From Acidimicrobiia bacterium (GTDB lineage: Bacteria > Actinomycetota > Acidimicrobiia > Actinomarinales > Actinomarinaceae), in NCBI GenBank assembly GCA_028376655.1, contig JAONAZ010000001.1, forward strand, positions 40,784 to 104,783: 64,000 nucleotides of DNA, read 5' to 3'. The translations under genes and the position numbers were made by a program. Below are positions 32,222-54,008 of the stretch, one piece after another (within the stretch, counting starts at the first letter, position 1; every line of letters starts with the position of its first letter). The notes under the pieces are model-generated. The model was not told the DNA's origin. It did no database searches and saw only the letters and a list, made by a program, of their open reading frames with translations.

Positions 32222-33832
32222 TTACTCAATTAATCTCTTATCGTCTTTAATCTTAATTTTTATATGATTATCAACAGTTCTAAAATCATCTGCATTGTGA
32301 GTAGCATTTAAAATAGTAAGGCTCGATTTGGATAAGATATCAAATATTAAGTTTTTAGAATTTATATCTAGATTTGATGTAGATTCATCCAACAATAAAA
32401 TTTCAACATCACCGAGTAGGGATCTAATGAATGATATTTTTTGTAATTGACCTGAAGATAATGTTTTATTTGAAATATGTTTTTCTAAATCCATATTGTT
32501 TTTTTCATTAAATAATCCAAAATCTTCAAGATACTTGTTTAACACATCATCCGATATGTTTTTGGTATTTCCATATAGTAAGTTATCTTTGAGAGAGCCG
32601 GCGATAATTAATGGGGTTACCCCTACATATCCAAACTTGCTGGAAAAACTGCTCACTGTTCCATCTTCAGGGTAAATAAGACCTGAACATAAACCCAGAA
32701 GAGTACTTTTACCAGAACCATTGGGGCCAGTTATAACATTGTGTGTATTTTTTTTAATCTCTAAACTTAAATCCTCGAATATATAATTTTCAGCATTGTA
32801 ATATTTGAAACTTAGATTTTTAATACTTATGGCTGACTCATTTTTAGTATTAACAGAAAAATTTCCCTTAAAGTTATTCGTACTATTTTCAGTTATCTCA
32901 TAAAGTTTTTTTATAACTACATGATTATTACTGACAAGCATAATGTTCTTGTTAACCTTACTAAATTCTTGGAAAAGCCTTATCAAAACTCCAATAAAAT
33001 CAAGAGTTAATATTTTAGCAAAATTAAAAAAAGCTAAGAGAATAGATAAGAGTAGTAAAGTAGCAAATTGTGGAAAACTTGTAGTTAAAGTTCCTACTTT
33101 TTGGGAGTCTAAATGTGCTCGATAGTAGATTTTTAACACTGACCTGAAATTTGCTATTTCATCATTAACTTTTTTTAGTAACTTTATTAAAAATATATTT
33201 TCTAGTATTTTTTGTAATTGAGAATTATACTCACGGGCAGCTTCCCAATCAACATGAGTATATGTTCTTCCACGTTTTGTAAAAAATTTAGTTGGTAAAT
33301 ACAATATCGCTGCTCCGCCAACAATTATTATCAAGGATTGTGTGTCAGAATATATCAAATATCCAGAATACAAAAATAACTGTATAAGGCTCGCGATCAA
33401 TCCCGTAAGGCTGTGATAAAAAGCTCCGACAGATAGTGCAAATGAGTTTAGGAAATGAAAAGCATCTCCCATGGAAAAGTTGGTTTTATCGAATATTTCT
33501 TCAAGTAAATAGACTCTCAAATTTTCTTCAATCTGAAATTTAAGTTTATAAGAGTTGAGAATATCAAGATATGAAAACAAAAATCTAGATACAACTACTG
33601 CAGGTAGTAAAAATAGATTATTGACAAAAAAGTTAACCACAAAATTATTGTTTGAAATATCATCTTGAAAAAGTGAGGCAATCGTAACAATGATAATTAA
33701 ATCACTTCCAAATGATGCAAACAACAATATTACAGAAAGAAGTACTCTTCCTTTTTTATTTTTGGTACCTGTCAATTTTGAGACGTACATTATATCTCTA
33801 ATAAAAGTTTTAAATTGTGATAACAATTCCAT
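32222..33832 (-). CDS. fused permease/ATPase ABC exporter (MsbA/PglK/Wzk-like), likely lipid-linked glycan flippase/exporter
   Basis: N-terminal 6-TM domain, then Walker A ITGPNGSGKSTLLGL, ABC signature LSSGQLQKISFIRSL and Walker B ILLLDESTSNLD. Confidence 0.8.
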   Translation of the reverse strand: MELLSQFKTFIRDIMYVSKLTGTKNKKGRVLLSVILLFASFGSDLIIIVTIASLFQDDISNNNFVVNFFVNNLFLLPAVVVSRFLFSYLDILNSYKLKFQIEENLRVYLLEEIFDKTNFSMGDAFHFLNSFALSVGAFYHSLTGLIASLIQLFLYSGYLIYSDTQSLIIIVGGAAILYLPTKFFTKRGRTYTHVDWEAAREYNSQLQKILENIFLIKLLKKVNDEIANFRSVLKIYYRAHLDSQKVGTLTTSFPQFATLLLLSILLAFFNFAKILTLDFIGVLIRLFQEFSKVNKNIMLVSNNHVVIKKLYEITENSTNNFKGNFSVNTKNESAISIKNLSFKYYNAENYIFEDLSLEIKKNTHNVITGPNGSGKSTLLGLCSGLIYPEDGTVSSFSSKFGYVGVTPLIIAGSLKDNLLYGNTKNISDDVLNKYLEDFGLFNEKNNMDLEKHISNKTLSSGQLQKISFIRSLLGDVEILLLDESTSNLDINSKNLIFDILSKSSLTILNATHNADDFRTVDNHIKIKIKDDKRLIE

Positions 33833-33867
33833 CCTTTATATATTTTGATTCATGCTTTCAGAAGTCC

Positions 33868-34599
33868 TTAGGACTGACCTAACAAACTATAGAATTTTTT
33901 AATACTTTTTCTTATTGTAATTGGCAAAATATAGTAATAAGCCTTAATTAATTTTTTAATTTTTTTATGACTAAGGAACTTTAGAAATTCTGCAATAATT
34001 TTTGATTTAATTATCCTTGGCTTGTTCATAAAAAAATAAAGTAAATAATCTTTCTTTTCTATTCTTTTATTCCACTTTCTTCCATAAAGATACCTCAATA
34101 CTTTAGTAGGTTCGTTCGGGATTTTTATTTTTATATTATTAAAAAGCGAATCAGTAAAAGGAAGGATGGTATTTTTGGTCATATACATCCATTGCTTTTT
34201 ATCTTCTTGGTATGGACCACCTATAGACTTAAGTAACACTTTTTGCTTAGGTGTTAATTCGTAAAAATAAAAATCTATTAAGCACACCTTATCCTTATTG
34301 TTAAATTCAGCTTGGATAAAATATTCACCTGAATTCACAGGCTTATTTAAATCTAATTTAAGATCAGATTTTAGAAGTAGAGTTATTATCTTTTGCTTAT
34401 TTTTGTAATCTACTAAAAAATCAATATCATCATCATTTTTTAATAAAGAATTATCTCTTATGATCCCCAGAAGTGTTCCAAAAAATATTGAATATTCAAC
34501 ATCTTTTATTATTTCAATAACATAATCAAATGCATTATTTAGCGTTGCATCATCGATTGGTTTTTTGTTATCCAGCTTAAGGTCATCAAATTTTTTCAT
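33868..34599 (-). CDS. LicD-family phospho-group (phosphocholine/phosphonate) transferase
   Basis: FFGTLLGIIRDNSLLKNDDDIDFLV matches the LicD/fukutin-type nucleotidyltransferase-fold motif (GTLLG...DDDxD). Confidence 0.55.
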   Translation of the reverse strand: MKKFDDLKLDNKKPIDDATLNNAFDYVIEIIKDVEYSIFFGTLLGIIRDNSLLKNDDDIDFLVDYKNKQKIITLLLKSDLKLDLNKPVNSGEYFIQAEFNNKDKVCLIDFYFYELTPKQKVLLKSIGGPYQEDKKQWMYMTKNTILPFTDSLFNNIKIKIPNEPTKVLRYLYGRKWNKRIEKKDYLLYFFMNKPRIIKSKIIAEFLKFLSHKKIKKLIKAYYYILPITIRKSIKKFYSLLGQS

Positions 34600-34615
34600 A
34601 ATTTGTTACCTATTC

Positions 34616-35680
34616 TTATATAAATTTCTTCAGAGATGATTTTATTATACTTTCAATATCCCCTTTTGTGGGAGTAACTATAAAGTTATCAAGTCTACTG
34701 TTCATAAATACTTCATTAATTATTTGTTCAAGGCTAAAATCTGTAAAGTATGATTTATAAATTTCCTGGAGACCAAAATTATTAACTATATTTAGTATTG
34801 CTTTAACTTCAACTTCTAAGGCTTCAATAAATATTTCTTTTTCGAAATAATTATTTATTGAATTTAAGGTGAAAGCACACGCAAGACCGTGGGGTAGGTT
34901 AAATTTGTTTGTCAACGGATAAGATATTGCATGAGAAAGAGAAGTCCTAGTTATATTTATAGCCTGACCTGCAAGATTTGAAGCTTCTAATAATTTATTT
35001 CTTGATATTACTGAATATGTCCCATTAAGATTTAGCTCAAATGATTCAATTAAAAGAGATAAAGATTTCTTACAAAGAGATAGTGATTCATTTGTTTTAT
35101 TCTTGCTCCATAAACTATCGAGACAATGAGAAATACAATCAAGCATCGTCGGGATTAAAATATGATCAGGTAAAGAATTTATAAAACTTGGAACAAGATA
35201 AACAACTTCTGGAAGCATTATTATATTTTCAAAAGATTCTTTATTTTTGGTTTCTTTATTCCAAATCGTGGAAAAGCAAGTACTTTCAGCACCTGTTCCT
35301 GCCGTTGTTGGTATGGCAATATTGAATATTTTTGAAGAATAAATTTGATTTAACTCATGCACCGAAGATATCTTCTGATTAGCGTCACTAGCCATACAGT
35401 ATATTTTTGCTAAATCTAATACACTTCCACCACCAAGAGAAATTACCAAATCATGTTTTGTATTTTGATACAGATTTAAGACTTGATTAATTAATTCATA
35501 ATCTGGATATCTTTCTACTAAAAAAATATCAGATGGTTTTATTTGCTCCGAAAACTGGCTTATATAACTTCTCTCATGATTACCTGGACTTGTTATAAGC
35601 AAAATATTTTTTGATTCTTTAATCTTATTGCTGTGTAATAAGTGTTGAGAATGTTTTTTTTTAACTATTACTTGATTCAC
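34616..35680 (-). CDS. iron-containing (group III) alcohol dehydrogenase; putative phosphonoacetaldehyde reductase giving 2-hydroxyethylphosphonate
   Basis: LGGGSVLDLAKIY is the Fe-ADH GGGSxxDxAK motif, with a His-rich metal site later (HCLDSLW...HAISYPLT). It overlaps the ppd stop by 20 bp in the same operon. Confidence 0.6.
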   Translation of the reverse strand: MNQVIVKKKHSQHLLHSNKIKESKNILLITSPGNHERSYISQFSEQIKPSDIFLVERYPDYELINQVLNLYQNTKHDLVISLGGGSVLDLAKIYCMASDANQKISSVHELNQIYSSKIFNIAIPTTAGTGAESTCFSTIWNKETKNKESFENIIMLPEVVYLVPSFINSLPDHILIPTMLDCISHCLDSLWSKNKTNESLSLCKKSLSLLIESFELNLNGTYSVISRNKLLEASNLAGQAINITRTSLSHAISYPLTNKFNLPHGLACAFTLNSINNYFEKEIFIEALEVEVKAILNIVNNFGLQEIYKSYFTDFSLEQIINEVFMNSRLDNFIVTPTKGDIESIIKSSLKKFI

Positions 35681-36785
35681 TATTGACCTTTTTAATAAAG
35701 TTTTCTTTATTTTCTATAGGGGAATTTTTAGGACGTGGAAGATTTGATTCTGAATAATTTTGTACCTCGATTTCTATATATGTTGGTCCATTATTTGTAT
35801 CGAAGCTTGAGTCAGTTAAATCTTTAAGATTATTAAATGTAAATATATTTTCATAGCCAAAAGAGCTAAACAGTTTTTTTCTGTCAATAGAATTATATAC
35901 GTTCGGCTGTCCTCCAACAGATTCATGAGCTGAGTTATTAAAAACAATATGAAAAAAATTCTTCATCTTCTCTGTACCAATAATTCCTTGGTGACCCATA
36001 TGCATGAGAATCGATCCATCACCATCCAAACAAACAATGTTTTTATTGCTTAAAGTTTTAGCAAGACCAAAAGATATAGCAGAAGCATGACCCATCCCAC
36101 CTACGGTATAAAAATCATCTTCACTGAGATCTTGATCTACTCTAAACTGATAAAGCTCTCTAGAAAGTTTGCCAGTAGTAGAAATAAAAATTGTTTCAGT
36201 ACTAAATTTTTTGACAATACCTTCTAACGCTTTTTTTCTCGTAGGAAGATTTTTATTATTCTGAAATTTTCTTTGATCTTTTTCAAATGTATCTTTCCTT
36301 ACTACCAATGCAGATGGATTATTTGTTTTAATATTGATGCTTAAGTATTCATGTACTTCTTCTAAAGTGGTATTTTTATCAATTACTTTATAGTCTATTT
36401 GGAGTAATTCCAGAAGTTTTAGAGTAATTTTACCTTGAAATTGGTGTTGAGGTTCATCTTTAAAACCCGGTTCCCCTCTCCATCCTACTAGTAAAACAAA
36501 AGGGATATTGTAAACCTCACTGTTTAAAAGCGATGTATACGGATTAATAAAATTACCTAAACCAGAATTTTGCATATAAATCAGTGGGATTTTACCTGTT
36601 CCGAGACTGTAACCCATACAAATTCCTAATGCACTACCTTCATTAGTTGAAATTATGTGATTTTTATCATTAAAGTCAAAATGTAAAGATTTACTAAACT
36701 CAGACATTAGTGAATCTGGAACACCTGTGAAAAAGTCAATACCTAAACTTTGTAGTGAGTTAATAAAATTTTTAGCTTTCAGCAT
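35661..36785 (-). CDS. ppd: phosphonopyruvate decarboxylase (TPP-dependent)
   Basis: CLDGDGSILMHMGHQGIIG...FNNSAHESVGGQP is the GDG-X24-NN TPP-binding motif. Its 374-aa length matches Ppd/AepY. It lies directly downstream of the PEP mutase. Confidence 0.7.
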   Translation of the reverse strand: MLKAKNFINSLQSLGIDFFTGVPDSLMSEFSKSLHFDFNDKNHIISTNEGSALGICMGYSLGTGKIPLIYMQNSGLGNFINPYTSLLNSEVYNIPFVLLVGWRGEPGFKDEPQHQFQGKITLKLLELLQIDYKVIDKNTTLEEVHEYLSINIKTNNPSALVVRKDTFEKDQRKFQNNKNLPTRKKALEGIVKKFSTETIFISTTGKLSRELYQFRVDQDLSEDDFYTVGGMGHASAISFGLAKTLSNKNIVCLDGDGSILMHMGHQGIIGTEKMKNFFHIVFNNSAHESVGGQPNVYNSIDRKKLFSSFGYENIFTFNNLKDLTDSSFDTNNGPTYIEIEVQNYSESNLPRPKNSPIENKENFIKKVNSESSNS

Positions 36786-36789
36786 TTTT

Positions 36790-38085
36790 TTAAGAAATAT
36801 CGGTGAAGTTGATAATGTCTTTTATACTCATTAAATTTTTCTCAATTTCTTGAGTTCTTCCATTTTTAAGGATACTTTGAGCTGTGTTTACCATTGCTGG
36901 GTATGCACTTCGAAGAAGATGGTTCGCATAGATAACTACATCTACTCCTATCTGCTTGAATTCACTTAATGAAACATGGTTAAAGGTTGTTGGAACAACA
37001 ACAATTGGTGCTGAATGTTTATCTCTATATTTTTTTACAAACTCAAAAATTTCTTCTTCAGATTCACTTTTACTATGGATAAGAATTCCTCCAGCACCTG
37101 CACCTAAGTAAGCATCTGCTCTAGATAAAGCATCATTCATTCCTTGATTCAAAATTAAGCTTTCAATTCGAGCAATAATAAGAAAATCATTAGTCCTTTT
37201 GGCATTATTACCTGCTCTTATCTTCTCTGAGAAATTCTCAATACTATCTTGTTTTTGATTTGCAGTATCACCGAATAAAGAATTCTTTTTTAAACCCACT
37301 TTATCCTCAATAACTACAGCCGAAACACCAATTCTTTCTAAATTTTTAACAGTATATATAAAGTGTTCAGACTTACCTCCTGTATCTCCATCATAAATAA
37401 TTGGCTTTGAAGTTACTTCTATAATTTCATTAATAGTATTTATTCTTGAAGTTGTATCCACTGCTTCAATATCGGGTTTACCCTTTGCTGTTGAATCCGT
37501 GAGACTACTAGCCCACATTCCATCAAATTCATACTCAACTCCTGAGTCTATAACTCTTGTATTTTCAATAACAATACCTGATAATGCATTGTGGATATCT
37601 AAAAAAATAAGAGTATCTTTATTGTTGATAGCTTTAACTAAAGATTGTCGCCTTTCGTCTGTTGTTAGATTTTTTTTAACTTTTGATTTATATATTGATG
37701 AAGAGACACCTTCGGTATAGGGTATTTCTATAAGCTCACCATCCCATTCTTGTAATACTTTTATCACTTTTTCTCTAATATCCTTTTGAATACCTGTTTT
37801 CCAGTCATCCCCATGCACCACAATACTGGGTTTTAATTTTCTTAAATTTTCTGTATAATCATGGGTTTCTTGTGGAACAACTTCTGAAACATATTTAATA
37901 CCGGCAATTACACTTTTCCTGTCTTCAAAAGCCATAATTGGCATTTTTTTATAAGTTGAAATAGCATGATCAGTTAACAAACCAACGGTTACTTTCCCTA
38001 ATTTGCTTGCTTCTCGTAATATATTCATATGTCCCGAATGTAAAATATCTGCACTCATTCCAACATAAACATTTGAATTCAACAT
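36790..38085 (-). CDS. ppm: phosphoenolpyruvate phosphomutase with an N-terminal HxGH cytidylyltransferase domain (AepX-like)
   Basis: The C-terminal two-thirds carry the Ppm-specific EDKX5NS motif (IEDKVGLKKNS), DGDTGGK and IHNALSGIVIE. The N-terminal ~130 aa (VYVGMSADILHSGHMNILREASKLG...VVHGDDW) match TagD-type CTP-transferase HxGH/GDDW motifs. The 431-aa length equals fused AepX-type enzymes. Confidence 0.85.
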   Translation of the reverse strand: MLNSNVYVGMSADILHSGHMNILREASKLGKVTVGLLTDHAISTYKKMPIMAFEDRKSVIAGIKYVSEVVPQETHDYTENLRKLKPSIVVHGDDWKTGIQKDIREKVIKVLQEWDGELIEIPYTEGVSSSIYKSKVKKNLTTDERRQSLVKAINNKDTLIFLDIHNALSGIVIENTRVIDSGVEYEFDGMWASSLTDSTAKGKPDIEAVDTTSRINTINEIIEVTSKPIIYDGDTGGKSEHFIYTVKNLERIGVSAVVIEDKVGLKKNSLFGDTANQKQDSIENFSEKIRAGNNAKRTNDFLIIARIESLILNQGMNDALSRADAYLGAGAGGILIHSKSESEEEIFEFVKKYRDKHSAPIVVVPTTFNHVSLSEFKQIGVDVVIYANHLLRSAYPAMVNTAQSILKNGRTQEIEKNLMSIKDIINFTDIS

Positions 38086-38169: not shown

Positions 38170-38718
38170 TTGTTATTAATAATGAAAAATAAAATTAGAA
38201 ATTCTATAAAATCTTCTGCTGAGGGAGACTACATTTACTTAATTGCTTTTCTATTTCTTTTGTTGTCACAAAATTTTTTCTTAATCAGCTTAGCTATTAT
38301 AAGTATTGAGTTGATTATAATTTCCTTAAATAATTCATTCAAAATTACAGTAGCTACATACCCGAATATGAAAACTTCAATAGCTAGATTTTACAAAAAT
38401 AATCAACTCATATTTATTATTTTTGTAGTTGTTTGTTTCTTAATAAATCTGGAACTGTTTAGTTCTTTTTATTCTTTTTTCTTAATTTCTTTTTTTGCAA
38501 ATATTTTAAGGGTTGTTTTACTACCACATAAAATTTACTTTTATAAGCTAGACAAGTTAAAACAATTATTGCTGGTTGAGAGTTCTTTTTTTCTTTTTTT
38601 TATTTATTTTTATTTATTTCAGACTTCCCTTAATATTTTTTTATTAATACCACTAACCTTATCCATTAGAAATATTTCATACTTTATTTTTGTTAAGTTA
38701 AAATTCTATGATCAATAA
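38170..38718 (+). CDS. small hydrophobic membrane protein (hypothetical)
   Basis: 182-aa ORF, strongly hydrophobic, divergent from the ppm operon. Could be spurious in this AT-rich intergenic-like region. Confidence 0.3.
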   Translation: MLLIMKNKIRNSIKSSAEGDYIYLIAFLFLLLSQNFFLISLAIISIELIIISLNNSFKITVATYPNMKTSIARFYKNNQLIFIIFVVVCFLINLELFSSFYSFFLISFFANILRVVLLPHKIYFYKLDKLKQLLLVESSFFLFFIYFYLFQTSLNIFLLIPLTLSIRNISYFIFVKLKFYDQ

Positions 38719-39666
38719 CCTTGGTAATTACTGACTGCAACCTTTATATTTAATTTCTGAAACAATTCTTGTCCTCTTTCTGTCGAGTTCAACCTATTAA
38801 TGTAGTCACCGCGGTAACTTAAAGTTTTGTTAAAGTAGTGGTCATTCATAAAAGTAGAAAATTTAGATAAATCAATTTTGTCATTATTAGTAGTTATGTC
38901 AAAAAGTTGATTATCATGCATGTCTCCAGTTATTAATGATAAACTCGTATCAATTTTTTTATCTTGATGAGACTTGAAAGTAAAATACTCATAGAGGCTT
39001 TGCTCGCTTCCATTTATAAAGTAACTTACTGGTTTTTCGTGAACCTTTTGTAAGTAATCAATCATATTTTTGTAAAGATTTGTATCAATGAACCAAAAGT
39101 CATTCATCCTAATATTGATATTATAAATTGGATCGTGTTTTTTTAAACTCCACCCAAATAAATTTTTAAATAAATGATGATACCTAACACCTTTTATCCC
39201 CGTACCTATAAGAAGTGTGGGCTTTAAAGAATTTTCATTAAGAAATTCTAAAATATCAAAGCTTTTTAATACCAAACTTTCCGAATCCATACACCAGACA
39301 TTTTTAAATCCTTCATTTTGAAGCCTAAGAAGGGAATATGTTCTTTTAAGGGCAACATAATCTCTGTGTTCACCTGCCCCCCCAAAATACAGATAACTGA
39401 TTTTTGGGTTTTAAAACATTGTCTAAATCTTCAATATATTCTAAATTTGCATTTGGAACTATGTTTTCCATTGACAGTGTATTCAAATTTAGATTTGATC
39501 TTACACCTTTTAGGAATTCTTCCTCTTCCTTCCTGCTGTCTAAGACTATGTATATAGGGATGTGTAAAATATTTTCAACTAGTTGTTCAAGAGACATTAG
39601 AAGTTTATACACATACCTATAGTGTGCTGGAATTGTTTGTATATGAATGCAAAAATTGTTTTTCAT
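38712..39666 (-). pseudogene. glycan-locus gene split into two ORFs (39666..39370 and 39290..38712) by a C7 homopolymer; removing one C gives a continuous ~315-aa protein
   Basis: Manual translation: the upstream ORF ends ...LSVFWGGR* immediately after the G7 (C7 on +) run at 39377..39383. In the -1 frame the sequence reads FWGAGEHRDYVALKRTYSLLRLQNEGFKNVWCMDSESLV... straight into the downstream ORF. Confidence 0.55.
39377..39383. repeat. C7/G7 homopolymeric tract inside a coding sequence; candidate slipped-strand phase-variation site or frameshift
   Basis: cacctgCCCCCCCaaaatac seen directly. A 7-nt G/C run is conspicuous in this ~30% GC sequence. Confidence 0.9.
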
Positions 39667-39713: not shown

Positions 39714-42206
39714 TTATTTATTTGCAGTAAACGTGCTAAAAATTATTTCTTCCCAAAATTTGTTTAAATATTGTGTAGCAAATTTAGACAAATGACCTAT
39801 ATTGTCAACATACAGTAGGTTATCTTCTATGTTTACTTTACAAATATTATCATTACATAAAAGGGGTAATGGGTCATAATACAAAATATTTTCATTAACT
39901 AAACTTTTAAGTAACGACGTAAGAAGCAATCTACTTTTTAACACTAATTCATAATCTTGATCGCACAGTTGATAATTTCGCATTGTAATAATTTCAAATT
40001 CGTAGTTTATATCACTACTATTACATAGTTCGGGTGTGTCATCTATGAGAATTAAGGTTGATTCATTATTTTTAACTATATCAATTATTTCAGAAAGTCT
40101 TTTGTAGATATTGGGATAAGTTTCTGTGGTAACTCTAAAACTAGAGATGGAAAATACAATTACATCGTTATAATTTAAATTCTCAGAAAAATATTGAAGA
40201 TATTTTTCATCACTATTTTTAATACAACTCCTAGACCCAACACAGTAGTCAACTCCTGTAAGATCAGAAAGATGTCCCCATTCAACCAATACATGATTCT
40301 TGAAATTCTGTACTTCTTTTAATTGATTTATTGAAGGGTAATGATTAGTTACATGACTGTCTCCTATTAGAAAAATATCACTCTCTATATCACTACTTTG
40401 GAAACAGATTTCTAAATCATTAATTTCCTGGTCTGGAAAACTACAGTAAATATTTTCGTATATAGAAGATAAGTCTTGTGAATTTAGATTATTATTTGAA
40501 TCTTCTTGCCTAAAGGGTGATGTAAGTAAGACAATCAATAATGTTACAAAAAGTATGAATAGTGAACTCTTTTTCCATGAGAAATGATTAAATTTATTTC
40601 CATACCTTATAGGTGATTCAATAAATTTATAGGAAAAAAGAGAAATTACAATAATTATTACAAATAAAGTTTCATCTGTTAAGACTTTAAAATTTATCCA
40701 TTTGCTGAATGTCAAAACTGGAATATGCCACAAATATAGGGAATAGGATAGTAATCCAATATTTGTGATGAGTCGATTTTTTAAAAATGCTCTTGTAAAT
40801 ACGCCCTCTTTATTTTCGACAAGCAATAATAATGTCAGAATCACAACTAATATATGTAAATACTGCGGCAAATTTACTGTAGTAAATACCGTTAAAAAAA
40901 GTAAGCTCAATAAAAAACCATTTTTTTCATAATCTAACTTAACTTTATATTGATTTAGTAGAAGTGAAAGTAAGCAGCCAGCACCAACTTGCCAAAATCT
41001 AGAAAGTACTAAATAATATGAAAAGAGAAAATTTGTTTCAAAATTATTCAAGAACAATATTAGAGAAATAGCTGAAAGAAGAATTAATATATATGTAAAC
41101 ATTTTTCTTTTTTTTGAATTTGAATAAAAAGTAAGAAAAAGTAGTGGGTAAAAAAAATAAAATTGTTCTTCAACGCCTAGTGACCATGTATGTAAAAAAG
41201 AATTGTATTTTGATACATCTGAAAAATATTCAAATGATTGAATATATAAATAAATATTAGATGCTCCGACTAGAGAAAATAATCCTGTTAAAAAAGTACT
41301 TTTAAAGTAATAGTCCACTTTGAATAGTGCCAATGACGAAATTACAAACATAAAGAAAACAGCTGGGAAGATTCTCTTAAATCTCTTTATGTAAAAGTTG
41401 CTCAAGAGATTATTTGTTCCTTTTTTAGTAGACGCCATTAATGAATTTGTAACAACAAATCCAGATATTGTAAAAAATATATCTACACCTAAATAACCAT
41501 TTGGAATAAAGTCTGTGTTGTAATGGTTAAATATTACAAAAATAACTGCTAAAGCTCTGAGTCCATCAATTTCTTTTCTATACTCACTTTTTATTGATCT
41601 ATTTAATTTCACCCTGGATAAATAAATTAGAATAAAAAGAAGTGCAGTTAATATAAAACCATCATAAATATTTTCAAAAAATAATTTATTTTCAACCAAT
41701 AAATTTCTTTGGAAAGTATTAAAAATTAAAATCAGTAGAAAAAATTTAACTTTATATATATATTTCCTAATCCACAATGATATTAAAAAGAAGATTACCG
41801 AAATAAGATTATATAATTTAGGACTAGTTCCGTAATAGATATCTATCTGACCATTAATTGCACTAAATTTAGTAATTTTTGAAATACATTTTATCGATCC
41901 TAAATTTTCAGAAAGATCTAAAGCATAGGGTGTGGCTCTGTAATCTGACTTGTCCTCAGCTTCGTCCAATAAATTAATAGCTAAATTCTGAACTGTACAG
42001 GGATTTTTTTGTATTTCGTTCATAATGTAATTTTCATATGTTTCATCAGAAGAAATAACCAGCTTTGACTGAGCATACGCATCGAATGCATTTAAGGAAT
42101 ACATTATTATTGGAAGAAGTGTCAATAATATATAAATTTTTATATATTTTTTATTAAAGTTTTTATTAAAGTTTTTATTAAAGTTTTTATTAAAGTTTTT
42201 ATACAT
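39714..42206 (-). CDS. large acyltransferase family 3 protein with an N-terminal ~200-aa extension and a C-terminal SGNH domain (830 aa)
   Basis: EIDGLRALAVIFVIFNHYNTDFIPNGYLGVDIFFTISGFVV and WSLGVEEQFY are acyltransferase-3 motifs, and LIGDSHVTNH is an SGNH block. The N-terminus begins MYKNFNKNFNKNFNKNFNKKY, encoded by the 12-bp tandem repeat, followed by a signal-peptide-like segment. Confidence 0.75.
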   Translation of the reverse strand: MYKNFNKNFNKNFNKNFNKKYIKIYILLTLLPIIMYSLNAFDAYAQSKLVISSDETYENYIMNEIQKNPCTVQNLAINLLDEAEDKSDYRATPYALDLSENLGSIKCISKITKFSAINGQIDIYYGTSPKLYNLISVIFFLISLWIRKYIYKVKFFLLILIFNTFQRNLLVENKLFFENIYDGFILTALLFILIYLSRVKLNRSIKSEYRKEIDGLRALAVIFVIFNHYNTDFIPNGYLGVDIFFTISGFVVTNSLMASTKKGTNNLLSNFYIKRFKRIFPAVFFMFVISSLALFKVDYYFKSTFLTGLFSLVGASNIYLYIQSFEYFSDVSKYNSFLHTWSLGVEEQFYFFYPLLFLTFYSNSKKRKMFTYILILLSAISLILFLNNFETNFLFSYYLVLSRFWQVGAGCLLSLLLNQYKVKLDYEKNGFLLSLLFLTVFTTVNLPQYLHILVVILTLLLLVENKEGVFTRAFLKNRLITNIGLLSYSLYLWHIPVLTFSKWINFKVLTDETLFVIIIVISLFSYKFIESPIRYGNKFNHFSWKKSSLFILFVTLLIVLLTSPFRQEDSNNNLNSQDLSSIYENIYCSFPDQEINDLEICFQSSDIESDIFLIGDSHVTNHYPSINQLKEVQNFKNHVLVEWGHLSDLTGVDYCVGSRSCIKNSDEKYLQYFSENLNYNDVIVFSISSFRVTTETYPNIYKRLSEIIDIVKNNESTLILIDDTPELCNSSDINYEFEIITMRNYQLCDQDYELVLKSRLLLTSLLKSLVNENILYYDPLPLLCNDNICKVNIEDNLLYVDNIGHLSKFATQYLNKFWEEIIFSTFTANK
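42151..42198. repeat. 12-bp tandem repeat (ttattaaagttt) x4 plus a partial copy, at the start codon/N-terminus of the 830-aa acyltransferase gene
   Basis: ttattaaagtttttattaaagtttttattaaagtttttattaaagttttt seen directly. The unit length is a multiple of 3 and encodes (NFNK)n on the minus strand. Confidence 0.85.
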
Positions 42207-52348: not shown

Positions 52349-52424
52349 TGGTGGCCAGAGGCAGAATCGAACTGCCGACCCCTTGTTTTTCAGACAAGTG
52401 CTCTACCGACTGAGCTATCTGGCC
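52349..52424 (-). tRNA. tRNA-Phe (anticodon GAA), CCA encoded
   Basis: Reverse complement GGCCAGATAGCTCAGTCGGTAGAGCACTTGTCTGAAAAACAAGGGGTCGGCAGTTCGATTCTGCCTCTGGCCACCA folds as a cloverleaf: 7-bp acceptor, GCTC/GAGC D-stem, anticodon loop CTGAAAA, TTCGATT T-loop. Confidence 0.9.
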
Positions 52425-52427
52425 GTA

Positions 52428-52505
52428 TGGCGGGGACGACGGGATTCGAACCCGCGACCTCCTGCGTGACAGGCAGGCGTGAACTCCAGACTTCACCACG
52501 CCCCC
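52428..52505 (-). tRNA. tRNA-Asp (anticodon GTC), CCA encoded
   Basis: Reverse complement GGGGGCGTGGTGAAGTCTGGAGTTCACGCCTGCCTGTCACGCAGGAGGTCGCGGGTTCGAATCCCGTCGTCCCCGCCA. The anticodon arm CCTGCCTGTCACGCAGG is identical to E. coli tRNA-Asp. It lies 3 nt upstream of tRNA-Phe. Confidence 0.85.
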
Positions 52506-52559
52506 GATTTCTAAATTATAACTTATTTAAATGTTTTCAATGGTTTTTTTTAATTTACA

Positions 52560-54008
52560 ATGGGTGTTATGAAATTAATAAGTTATATAAAATATCTTTT
52601 TCGTTTTCTCTTTTTGCAGACAGTACTTACTTCTTTTTCAATTTATTATTTTGATAAGTTCCTAATTGGTGATTATTTTGAAGGATATTTAATAATTAGA
52701 GATAACTTGCTTGAAGATAGAGACCGTTTTTATCCCTTTATTACAAATGATTTTATTAAAACTGATATATATATTGCTCTTTTTATATTTATTTTTTTAA
52801 TAATTCTTTACTCTACAAATTTTTACACATATGTAAACGAACTAACATATACTCTAGAAAAAAAGTTTTTTGATGAATTTTTCCCAATTTATCTTTTATG
52901 GACAAGCTGTATGTTTGTTTTCTTTTATGTATTGAGATTTTCAATACTAGCAAGAAGCTACTTGATACTATTCACATTTTTAGTACCGTTGATTCTTATT
53001 CTGTTTAGAAATAGTGAACTTCTTTCATCGTTACTAGGCAGATCTGTTTCAGGTGAAAGTTTTATTACGTTTAACCTTGATAAAGACTCGATTTATAGAA
53101 AATTAAGAATTATGACATTCAGAAAAAATATTGGCGACTATGAACTTTCAGATTTTAAAAATCCTAATGAGATAATAAATTCCATAGATGAGATAAATAA
53201 AAATACTGAAATGAATTTACTTATTTTTAATTTAGGTACAGTAAAAACTCTTCCAGTAGAACTTGAGAAGTATCTTATAAAAATAAATAAAAAAATACTT
53301 TTAATCTCAGAAGATCGCATTGAATTTAACAATAAATTTATTTATAGAAGTGAAAAACTAGATGGTTCTTTCTTAACCTACTTCAATAACGATATTCAAT
53401 ATGGATCCAAATATATTGTAAAAAGAATATTGGATATTCTAGTATCATTTACAGTAATAACCCTGTTGTCTCCGTTGTATGTGTTTTTATATTTATTTAT
53501 ACTCATCAAAGATGGTAGGCCAGTAGTCATTAAGCAAAATAGAGTTGGCCTACATGGAAAACAATTTTCTATGTACAAATTTAGAACAATGAAAAATAAT
53601 TCCCATTCCTTACGAGGTGAGCTAAGTGATTTGAATGAAAGAAAAGGGCCTATTTTTAAAATAGAAAATGATCCCAGAATACTTCAAGGAGCAAATTTCA
53701 TCAGAGACTTTAGTTTTGACGAACTTCCACAATTCTTCAATGTAATTAAGGGAAGTATGTCTGTAGTCGGTCCTAGGCCATTATTTGATAATGATACAAA
53801 GTCCTTCAGCACAAACTATATGAGAAGGTTGAATGTCATGCCGGGCATAACAGGTTTACTACAAATTAATGATCGAAATGCTACTGAGTTTTCAACATGG
53901 TATAAATATGATATTTTATATATAGAGAATTGGTCAATAGCACTTGATTTAAAAATTATATTAAAAACTCCATTAGCACTGATTAAATCTAAAACCAAAG
54001 GCATCTAA
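52560..54008 (+). CDS. polyprenyl-phosphate hexose-1-phosphate transferase (WbaP/PglC/EpsL-type 'bacterial sugar transferase'), the initiating enzyme of glycan assembly
   Basis: C-terminal domain ILDILVSFTVITLLSPLYVFLYLFI...DGRPVVIKQNRVGLHGKQFSMYKFRTM...DELPQFFNVIKGSMSVVGPRPL is the Bac_transf signature. Four N-terminal TM helices and a central linker. Confidence 0.85.
   Translation: MGVMKLISYIKYLFRFLFLQTVLTSFSIYYFDKFLIGDYFEGYLIIRDNLLEDRDRFYPFITNDFIKTDIYIALFIFIFLIILYSTNFYTYVNELTYTLEKKFFDEFFPIYLLWTSCMFVFFYVLRFSILARSYLILFTFLVPLILILFRNSELLSSLLGRSVSGESFITFNLDKDSIYRKLRIMTFRKNIGDYELSDFKNPNEIINSIDEINKNTEMNLLIFNLGTVKTLPVELEKYLIKINKKILLISEDRIEFNNKFIYRSEKLDGSFLTYFNNDIQYGSKYIVKRILDILVSFTVITLLSPLYVFLYLFILIKDGRPVVIKQNRVGLHGKQFSMYKFRTMKNNSHSLRGELSDLNERKGPIFKIENDPRILQGANFIRDFSFDELPQFFNVIKGSMSVVGPRPLFDNDTKSFSTNYMRRLNVMPGITGLLQINDRNATEFSTWYKYDILYIENWSIALDLKIILKTPLALIKSKTKGI

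Follow-up and report, generated by a model that had tools for sequence, protein, structure and literature searches.

Two neighboring ORFs in the window (the whole 64,000-nt stretch of DNA analyzed here) are parts of one gene, and we lean towards a recent, non-programmed +1 frameshift (G6 to G7) as the event that inactivated this normally intact 317-aa GT-A-type gene. We prefer to regard the extra G as biological rather than technical in origin, i.e., as a real null allele, and the gene product is presumably non-functional. The deposited proteins MDC1070720.1 and MDC1070721.1 are best treated as the two parts of a single gene with a frameshift.

The split gene and its G7 run

The whole frameshifted gene occupies 38712..39666 on the minus strand; the product of its G6 version is a glycosyltransferase-like protein of 317 aa, with a GT-A fold and no named family. 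At the break, the minus strand reads ...GTA TTT TGG GGG GGC AGG TGA; the run of seven G (C7 on the plus strand) spans 39377..39383, and the closest intact alleles, at G6, have one G fewer. Translation of the G7 allele halts two codons past the run: the 5′ fragment (39370..39666, minus strand) is a 98-aa ORF comprising residues 1–96 plus GR*, and it ends FWGGR* just after the run, in agreement with the initial annotation of this DNA. The 3′ fragment (38712..39290, minus strand) is a 192-aa ORF covering residues 126–317; it starts MDSES at an internal Met that sits immediately ahead of the invariant D127-S-E129. The intervening segment, 39291..39369 (minus strand), is encoded in the correct frame by neither ORF and, together with two codons upstream, specifies residues 97–125 (AGEHRDYVALKRTYSLLRLQNEGFKNVWC), which include R101, K107, R108, L113, W124, and C125, all invariant in the family alignment. 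The alternative frame reads GGAGEHRDYVALKRTYSLLRLQNEGFKNVWC, free of stops, from the run into the Met of the 192-aa ORF, as had also been described. Removal of one G (G6) gives a single 317-aa ORF, whereas addition of one G (G8) does not restore the frame; the annotated claim that a single-base slip restores an ORF of ~315 aa therefore holds for deletion and fails for addition. Its central observation, one gene split by a one-base change in homopolymer length inside a glycan locus, is correct.

NCBI (PGAP) annotates the two halves as separate hypothetical proteins, under the label Acidimicrobiia bacterium and on a contig of 144,757 bp. The 5′ fragment is identical to MDC1070721.1 (OAQ50_00420) and to P0071, and the 3′ fragment is identical to MDC1070720.1 (OAQ50_00415) and to P0074. 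No clear Shine-Dalgarno sequence was found upstream of the internal ATG of the 3′ fragment; the true start of the gene is preceded by AGGA. A functional split enzyme is implausible because residues 97–125 would be missing and the internal ATG is without a clear ribosome-binding site.

The GC content of the window is 29.3%, and 39377..39383 is both the sole G/C run of at least seven and the longest G/C run in the 64 kb. The initial annotation regarded a 7-C run as striking in DNA of ~30% GC; however, 100 dinucleotide-preserving shuffles of the window gave a mean of 0.71 G7/C7 runs per window, with at least one such run in 41 of the 100, so the run is statistically unremarkable.

Orthologous alleles and the origin of the run

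For comparison, the syntenic locus was collected 30 times (29 distinct contigs) from ~27 datasets, mostly via intact proteins, which biases the set against finding further broken alleles. The reading frame was intact and 317 aa long in every contig. The homopolymer-free sequence TGG GGA GCA (GGGGAG) was present in 21 contigs and TGG GGG GCA (G6) in the other eight; G5, G7, or G8 occurred in none of the 29, leaving the G7 of the window as the only variation in tract length. An unbiased variable-gap pattern scan of JGI metagenome contigs for G5–G9 returned two contigs only, both GGGGAG, and exact look-ups in a contig index of both truncated products, the flanking acyltransferase, and PepM produced no matches. 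Among the public copies examined, the G7 allele was found only in the window's own assembly. One candidate for a second truncated allele, P0072 (187 aa, internal TTG start), was rejected because the end of a contig truncates it.

A single allele, one synonymous base away from the repaired window gene, is common to seven G6 contigs from as many datasets, and P0077 is an exact match to the repaired protein. The window therefore has a G6 allele to which one G has been added, with the background otherwise unaltered. Because the commonest intact G6 allele is only that one synonymous base away, the break is either very recent or an error. Pairwise alignments placed the only 1-bp gap at the run in comparisons with L012, L003, L048, L049–L050, and L051–L054, and the extra G is the sole 1-bp indel against L012, L003, L048, and L051 over 13–16 kb. 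The one further indel relative to those assemblies alters a 12-bp repeat by 24 bp and keeps the frame.

With the repaired protein as the query, 64 homologues were found, each called as a single gene product; most are 305–353 aa long, with a few shorter fragments and one protein of 512 aa, and they include 317-aa proteins that are 99% and 97% identical to the query. In an alignment of 36 family members, W95 and R101 are invariant and G96, G98, and H100 are at least 90% conserved. Together they form WGAGGHR, the most conserved motif of the family, and the break falls inside it. Distant homologues have TGG followed by GGT, GGA, or GGG at the equivalent codons, which gives runs of G4–G6 and never longer. 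Since Trp is encoded by TGG and Gly by GGN, a G4–G6 run is forced by the Trp-Gly codons (TGG GGN) of this motif. The homopolymer hence goes back to a synonymous GGA-to-GGG change in one sublineage and is no maintained repeat.

These alleles suggest a simple course of events. In most of the population, the run is interrupted (TGG GGA GCA); in one sublineage, the synonymous GGA-to-GGG change made it G6; and in the sequenced genome, ordinary replication slippage would have added the further G to produce G7. With the stop two codons on, neither fragment encodes residues 97–125 and their six invariant positions, so that the enzyme would be lost. A flexible island may tolerate losing a gene for surface glycan, and phage pressure, for example, could even favor the loss.

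Assembly error, phase variation, and recoding

A technical origin is the alternative that we take most seriously, although it remains a tentative one: the gene of the organism would in truth be intact, with G6, and the assembly consensus would be wrong by one G at the region's one G/C homopolymer. Homopolymers are a classic site of indel errors, and this general knowledge counts in its favor. The G7 is unique to this metagenome-assembled genome (MAG), with the closest alleles at G6 and otherwise one synonymous base apart; isolated indels occur in other assemblies of the same island (L001 and L062); and NCBI lists the halves as separate hypothetical proteins, with nothing further in support. 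The quality of the surrounding sequence points the other way. No other 1-bp indel was seen when 13–16 kb were compared with four independent assemblies, in which each of the 44 A/T runs of at least seven in that interval, up to T9, has the same length. Had the platform been prone to errors in homopolymers, miscalls should have appeared in some of these longer A/T runs too, and a generally error-prone assembly was rejected on this evidence. The window is also 93% coding, with no other split or broken gene among its ~60 ORFs. The otherwise clean assembly modestly favors a real allele.

The initial annotation proposed a slipped-strand phase-variation switch, and here the alleles make an evolved or nascent contingency tract unlikely. 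Such a tract would turn the glycosyltransferase on at G6 and G9 and off at G7 and G8, thereby varying the surface glycan. The setting is a suitable one: the GT-A-like gene lies between an AT3-SGNH acyltransferase and a pepM cluster in an fGI1-like window, inside a hypervariable and probably phage-selected island; the run is the longest of its kind in a 29% GC window; and G6 and G7 are both present in near-identical backgrounds. A run of seven G can also be unstable in some bacteria, with G7-to-G8 insertions in C. jejuni estimated at ~1e-4 per division (PMC3401435). As in the contingency loci of Campylobacter jejuni, Neisseria meningitidis, and Haemophilus influenzae, the G/C homopolymer lies within a gene for glycan biosynthesis, the genome is AT-rich, and a one-base change in length toggles the reading frame.

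The resemblance does not extend further. Switching polyG/C tracts are typically 8 or more bases long, and the C. jejuni genome (~31% GC) has 11–29 tracts of at least seven, with modal lengths of G9–G10 and few of G6–G8 (PMC3401435). Unlike these, the run described here reaches G7 only in the window, with G6 or GGGGAG in the other contigs, is interrupted in most of the population (21 of 29 orthologous contigs), and never exceeds six in any orthologue. No length series and no mixture of on and off lengths between strains was detected, with 29 of 29 other contigs in frame in a set mostly fetched via intact proteins. An uninterrupted tract is not kept across orthologues beyond the coding need, and conserved Trp-Gly codons account for the run, as they do for G4–G6 in the distant homologues. 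Instead of a phasome with multiple tracts above chance, the 64-kb window contains one run of at least seven, i.e., a chance-level number, and this run is located in a catalytic core motif, away from the 5′ end of the gene. Homopolymer-free orthologues with a single intact ORF are also the pattern that the initial annotation had itself set against a switch; its fallback explanations, a recent inactivating frameshift or a sequencing error at a homopolymer, are the ones that the evidence supports.

The narrower idea of a nascent tract, in which G6 slips to G7 often enough to toggle a glycosyltransferase of a phosphonate-decorated envelope, is in our view more doubtful still. The actinobacterial host may presumably be without MutS/MutL mismatch repair. 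If the idea were true, the tract would provide phage-escape variants without gene loss, and homopolymer phase variation would be reported for the first time in a free-living, oligotrophic bacterium of the ocean.

We regard it as very improbable that the G7 allele is expressed at full length via programmed +1 ribosomal frameshifting or transcriptional slippage, a check suggested in the initial annotation. Judged from the nucleotide sequence only, a tRNA-Gly on GGG could re-pair +1 on GGG, which would restore exactly WGAGEH, and the 0-frame meets AGG-UGA two codons later. However, the geometry is not prfB-like, and an AGG-to-GGU slip would pair poorly. Frameshifting is needed by none of the 29 orthologous contigs or 64 homologues, so nothing about it is conserved or programmed, and both the re-pairing on the G run and the AGG-UGA were rejected as programmed signals for this reason. 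Some leaky full-length product from the G7 allele is conceivable; any such read-through would be incidental. The notion that the two ORFs are naturally separate genes, as the PGAP calls of MDC1070721.1 and MDC1070720.1 imply, is refuted, with next to no probability left to it, by full-length homologues that are always a single ORF, by a break within the most conserved motif that leaves 29 residues (six of them invariant) uncoded, and by a predicted model with one compact domain.

Protein family and genomic island

The AlphaFold2 model of the repaired protein, built with the family alignment as input, has a pLDDT of 93.6 and a pTM of 0.91 and consists of a single GT-A-type domain with a Rossmann-like alpha/beta/alpha architecture. 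In this model, residues 97–125 cover a helix (100–117) and part of a central strand (122–127), and the invariant D127-S-E129 follows directly after that strand. The top Foldseek matches in the PDB were XXYLT1 (GT8; PDB: 4wlm), S. aureus TarP/TarS (GT2), and the GT6 alpha-1,3-GalT/ABO enzymes, with a probability of 1.0, E values down to 2.9e-7, TM scores of 0.32–0.44, and 8%–15% identity. The modeled protein shares the fold of these GT-A enzymes, but the structural similarity is only moderate and, unlike them, it falls in no Pfam or NCBIfam glycosyltransferase family. Its invariant D-x-E is a candidate counterpart of the DxD motif for metal and nucleotide-sugar binding in GT-A enzymes. Neither the repaired protein nor any of the 36 aligned members matched a curated glycosyltransferase family in Pfam or NCBIfam, DUF7616 gave a sub-threshold match only, and a sequence search of the PDB found nothing meaningful. 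The most fitting description of the repaired protein is a GT-A-like transferase whose family is unnamed.

The family was not recovered in a profile-guided scan of the GTDB species representatives. Members that are 41%–45% identical to the repaired protein occur on giant-virus contigs, and seven IMG/VR loci (L068–L074) carry the family, four of them named GVMAG. One viral member (L066:10001-10936) has as neighbors a PBCV-type minor capsid protein P11 (Pfam P11_C, 7.9e-34), a sub-threshold P4-like match, and DUF5760, and L066 also has orphan ORFs of 1175–2022 aa. The GT-A-like gene could have been exchanged between virus and bacterium.

Upstream of the split gene is an 830-aa AT3 + SGNH O-acyltransferase (39714..42206, minus strand; Pfam Acyl_transf_3 3e-25, SGNH 1.2e-19). 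Its 5′ end contains a 12-bp tandem repeat (42150..42206, minus strand) that encodes an N-terminal MYK(NFNK)n, and the window is 24 bp (two units) longer here than L001, L003, L048, L051, and L052. The copy number of the repeat thus differs, in frame, between near-identical strains. A 182-aa ORF on the plus strand (38170..38718), hydrophobic and matching no family, converges on the split gene, with 7 bp of overlap at the 3′ end of that gene; a 178-aa counterpart is called in every related locus whose fetched DNA passes the 3′ end of the gene.

Downstream is a phosphonate module (32222..38085, minus strand), identified with NCBIfam and Pfam. It comprises PepM fused to an N-terminal cytidylyltransferase (36790..38085; TIGR02320, 384.6 bits, cut-off 319.55), phosphonopyruvate decarboxylase (Ppd; 35661..36785; TIGR03297, 404.3 bits, cut-off 312.5), an Fe-alcohol dehydrogenase (34616..35680; Pfam), a LicD-like phosphotransferase (33868..34599; Pfam), and an ABC exporter (32222..33832; Pfam), all on the minus strand. 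The combination of PEP mutase and phosphonopyruvate decarboxylase by which a phosphonate cluster is recognized is therefore present. The dehydrogenase probably makes 2-hydroxyethylphosphonate, and the complete module suggests transfer of a CMP-activated phosphonate onto a glycan that is exported. In one other assembly (L001), 1-bp indels at window-equivalent positions 34669, 34591, and 42275 were observed, with the Fe-alcohol dehydrogenase and LicD genes shortened, and in another (L062:1-1453) the acyltransferase is split into 431 and 376 aa. Public assemblies of this island thus often contain isolated indels whose origin is uncertain.

Actinomarinaceae are among the marine carriers of pepM, and the neighborhoods typically include glycosyltransferases and genes of the choline-phosphotransferase type (PMC9381506). 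The window resembles these pepM-ppd neighborhoods in that PepM and Ppd, both above their equivalog cut-offs, are found beside LicD-like, cytidylyltransferase, ABC exporter, and glycan genes. It differs in that a phosphonate-decorating role for the split gene is suggested by adjacency only, and pepM was absent within 10 kb on either side of the 44%-identical homologue on a giant-virus contig. By its position, the split gene may have a role in building or decorating a phosphonate-bearing glycan.

The window also contains ArgRS, a polyprenyl glycosylphosphotransferase, and four tRNAs, of which tRNA-Phe and tRNA-Asp lie at 52349..52505. In GTDB representatives, this ArgRS is most similar to that of Candidatus Actinomarina genomes, at 64% identity or less, which places the source as a Candidatus Actinomarina-like bacterium. 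The fGI1 of Actinomarinales is a tRNA-bounded, flexible "glycotype" island, and its gene content varies even within species (PMC7771536). The window with its tRNA-Phe/tRNA-Asp pair is consistent with fGI1. A 118.8-kb contig (L051; JGI 3300046163) matches the window to 45107 and resumes at 52351..53072 by tRNA-Phe/tRNA-Asp; its different short insert carries a Methyltransf_21 gene, such that ~7 kb of the island content in the window is replaced in a strain that is 99.5% identical elsewhere.

Spontaneous loss of function of surface genes in hypervariable islands has reportedly been found in phage-resistant mutants of Prochlorococcus. The case described here would be similar: a one-off frameshift in a glycosyltransferase-type gene of a flexible envelope island in an abundant, streamlined marine bacterium. 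The proposed context is likewise phage evasion (fGI1; PMC7771536), and here the mutation is known from assembled sequence alone.

The value of the case is chiefly as a negative result, in that a lone, Campylobacter-like G7 in an AT-rich glycan locus proves to be one-off when population data are consulted. Three questions form a quick, reusable test for such runs: is the tract conserved, is it longer than the codons require, and is its length polymorphic across public assemblies? If the frameshift is real, then the envelope island of this abundant, uncultured ocean bacterium offers a small example of variation by loss of function. The family itself, with a confident GT-A fold, no curated entry, and members shared with giant viruses, is more interesting than the frameshift.
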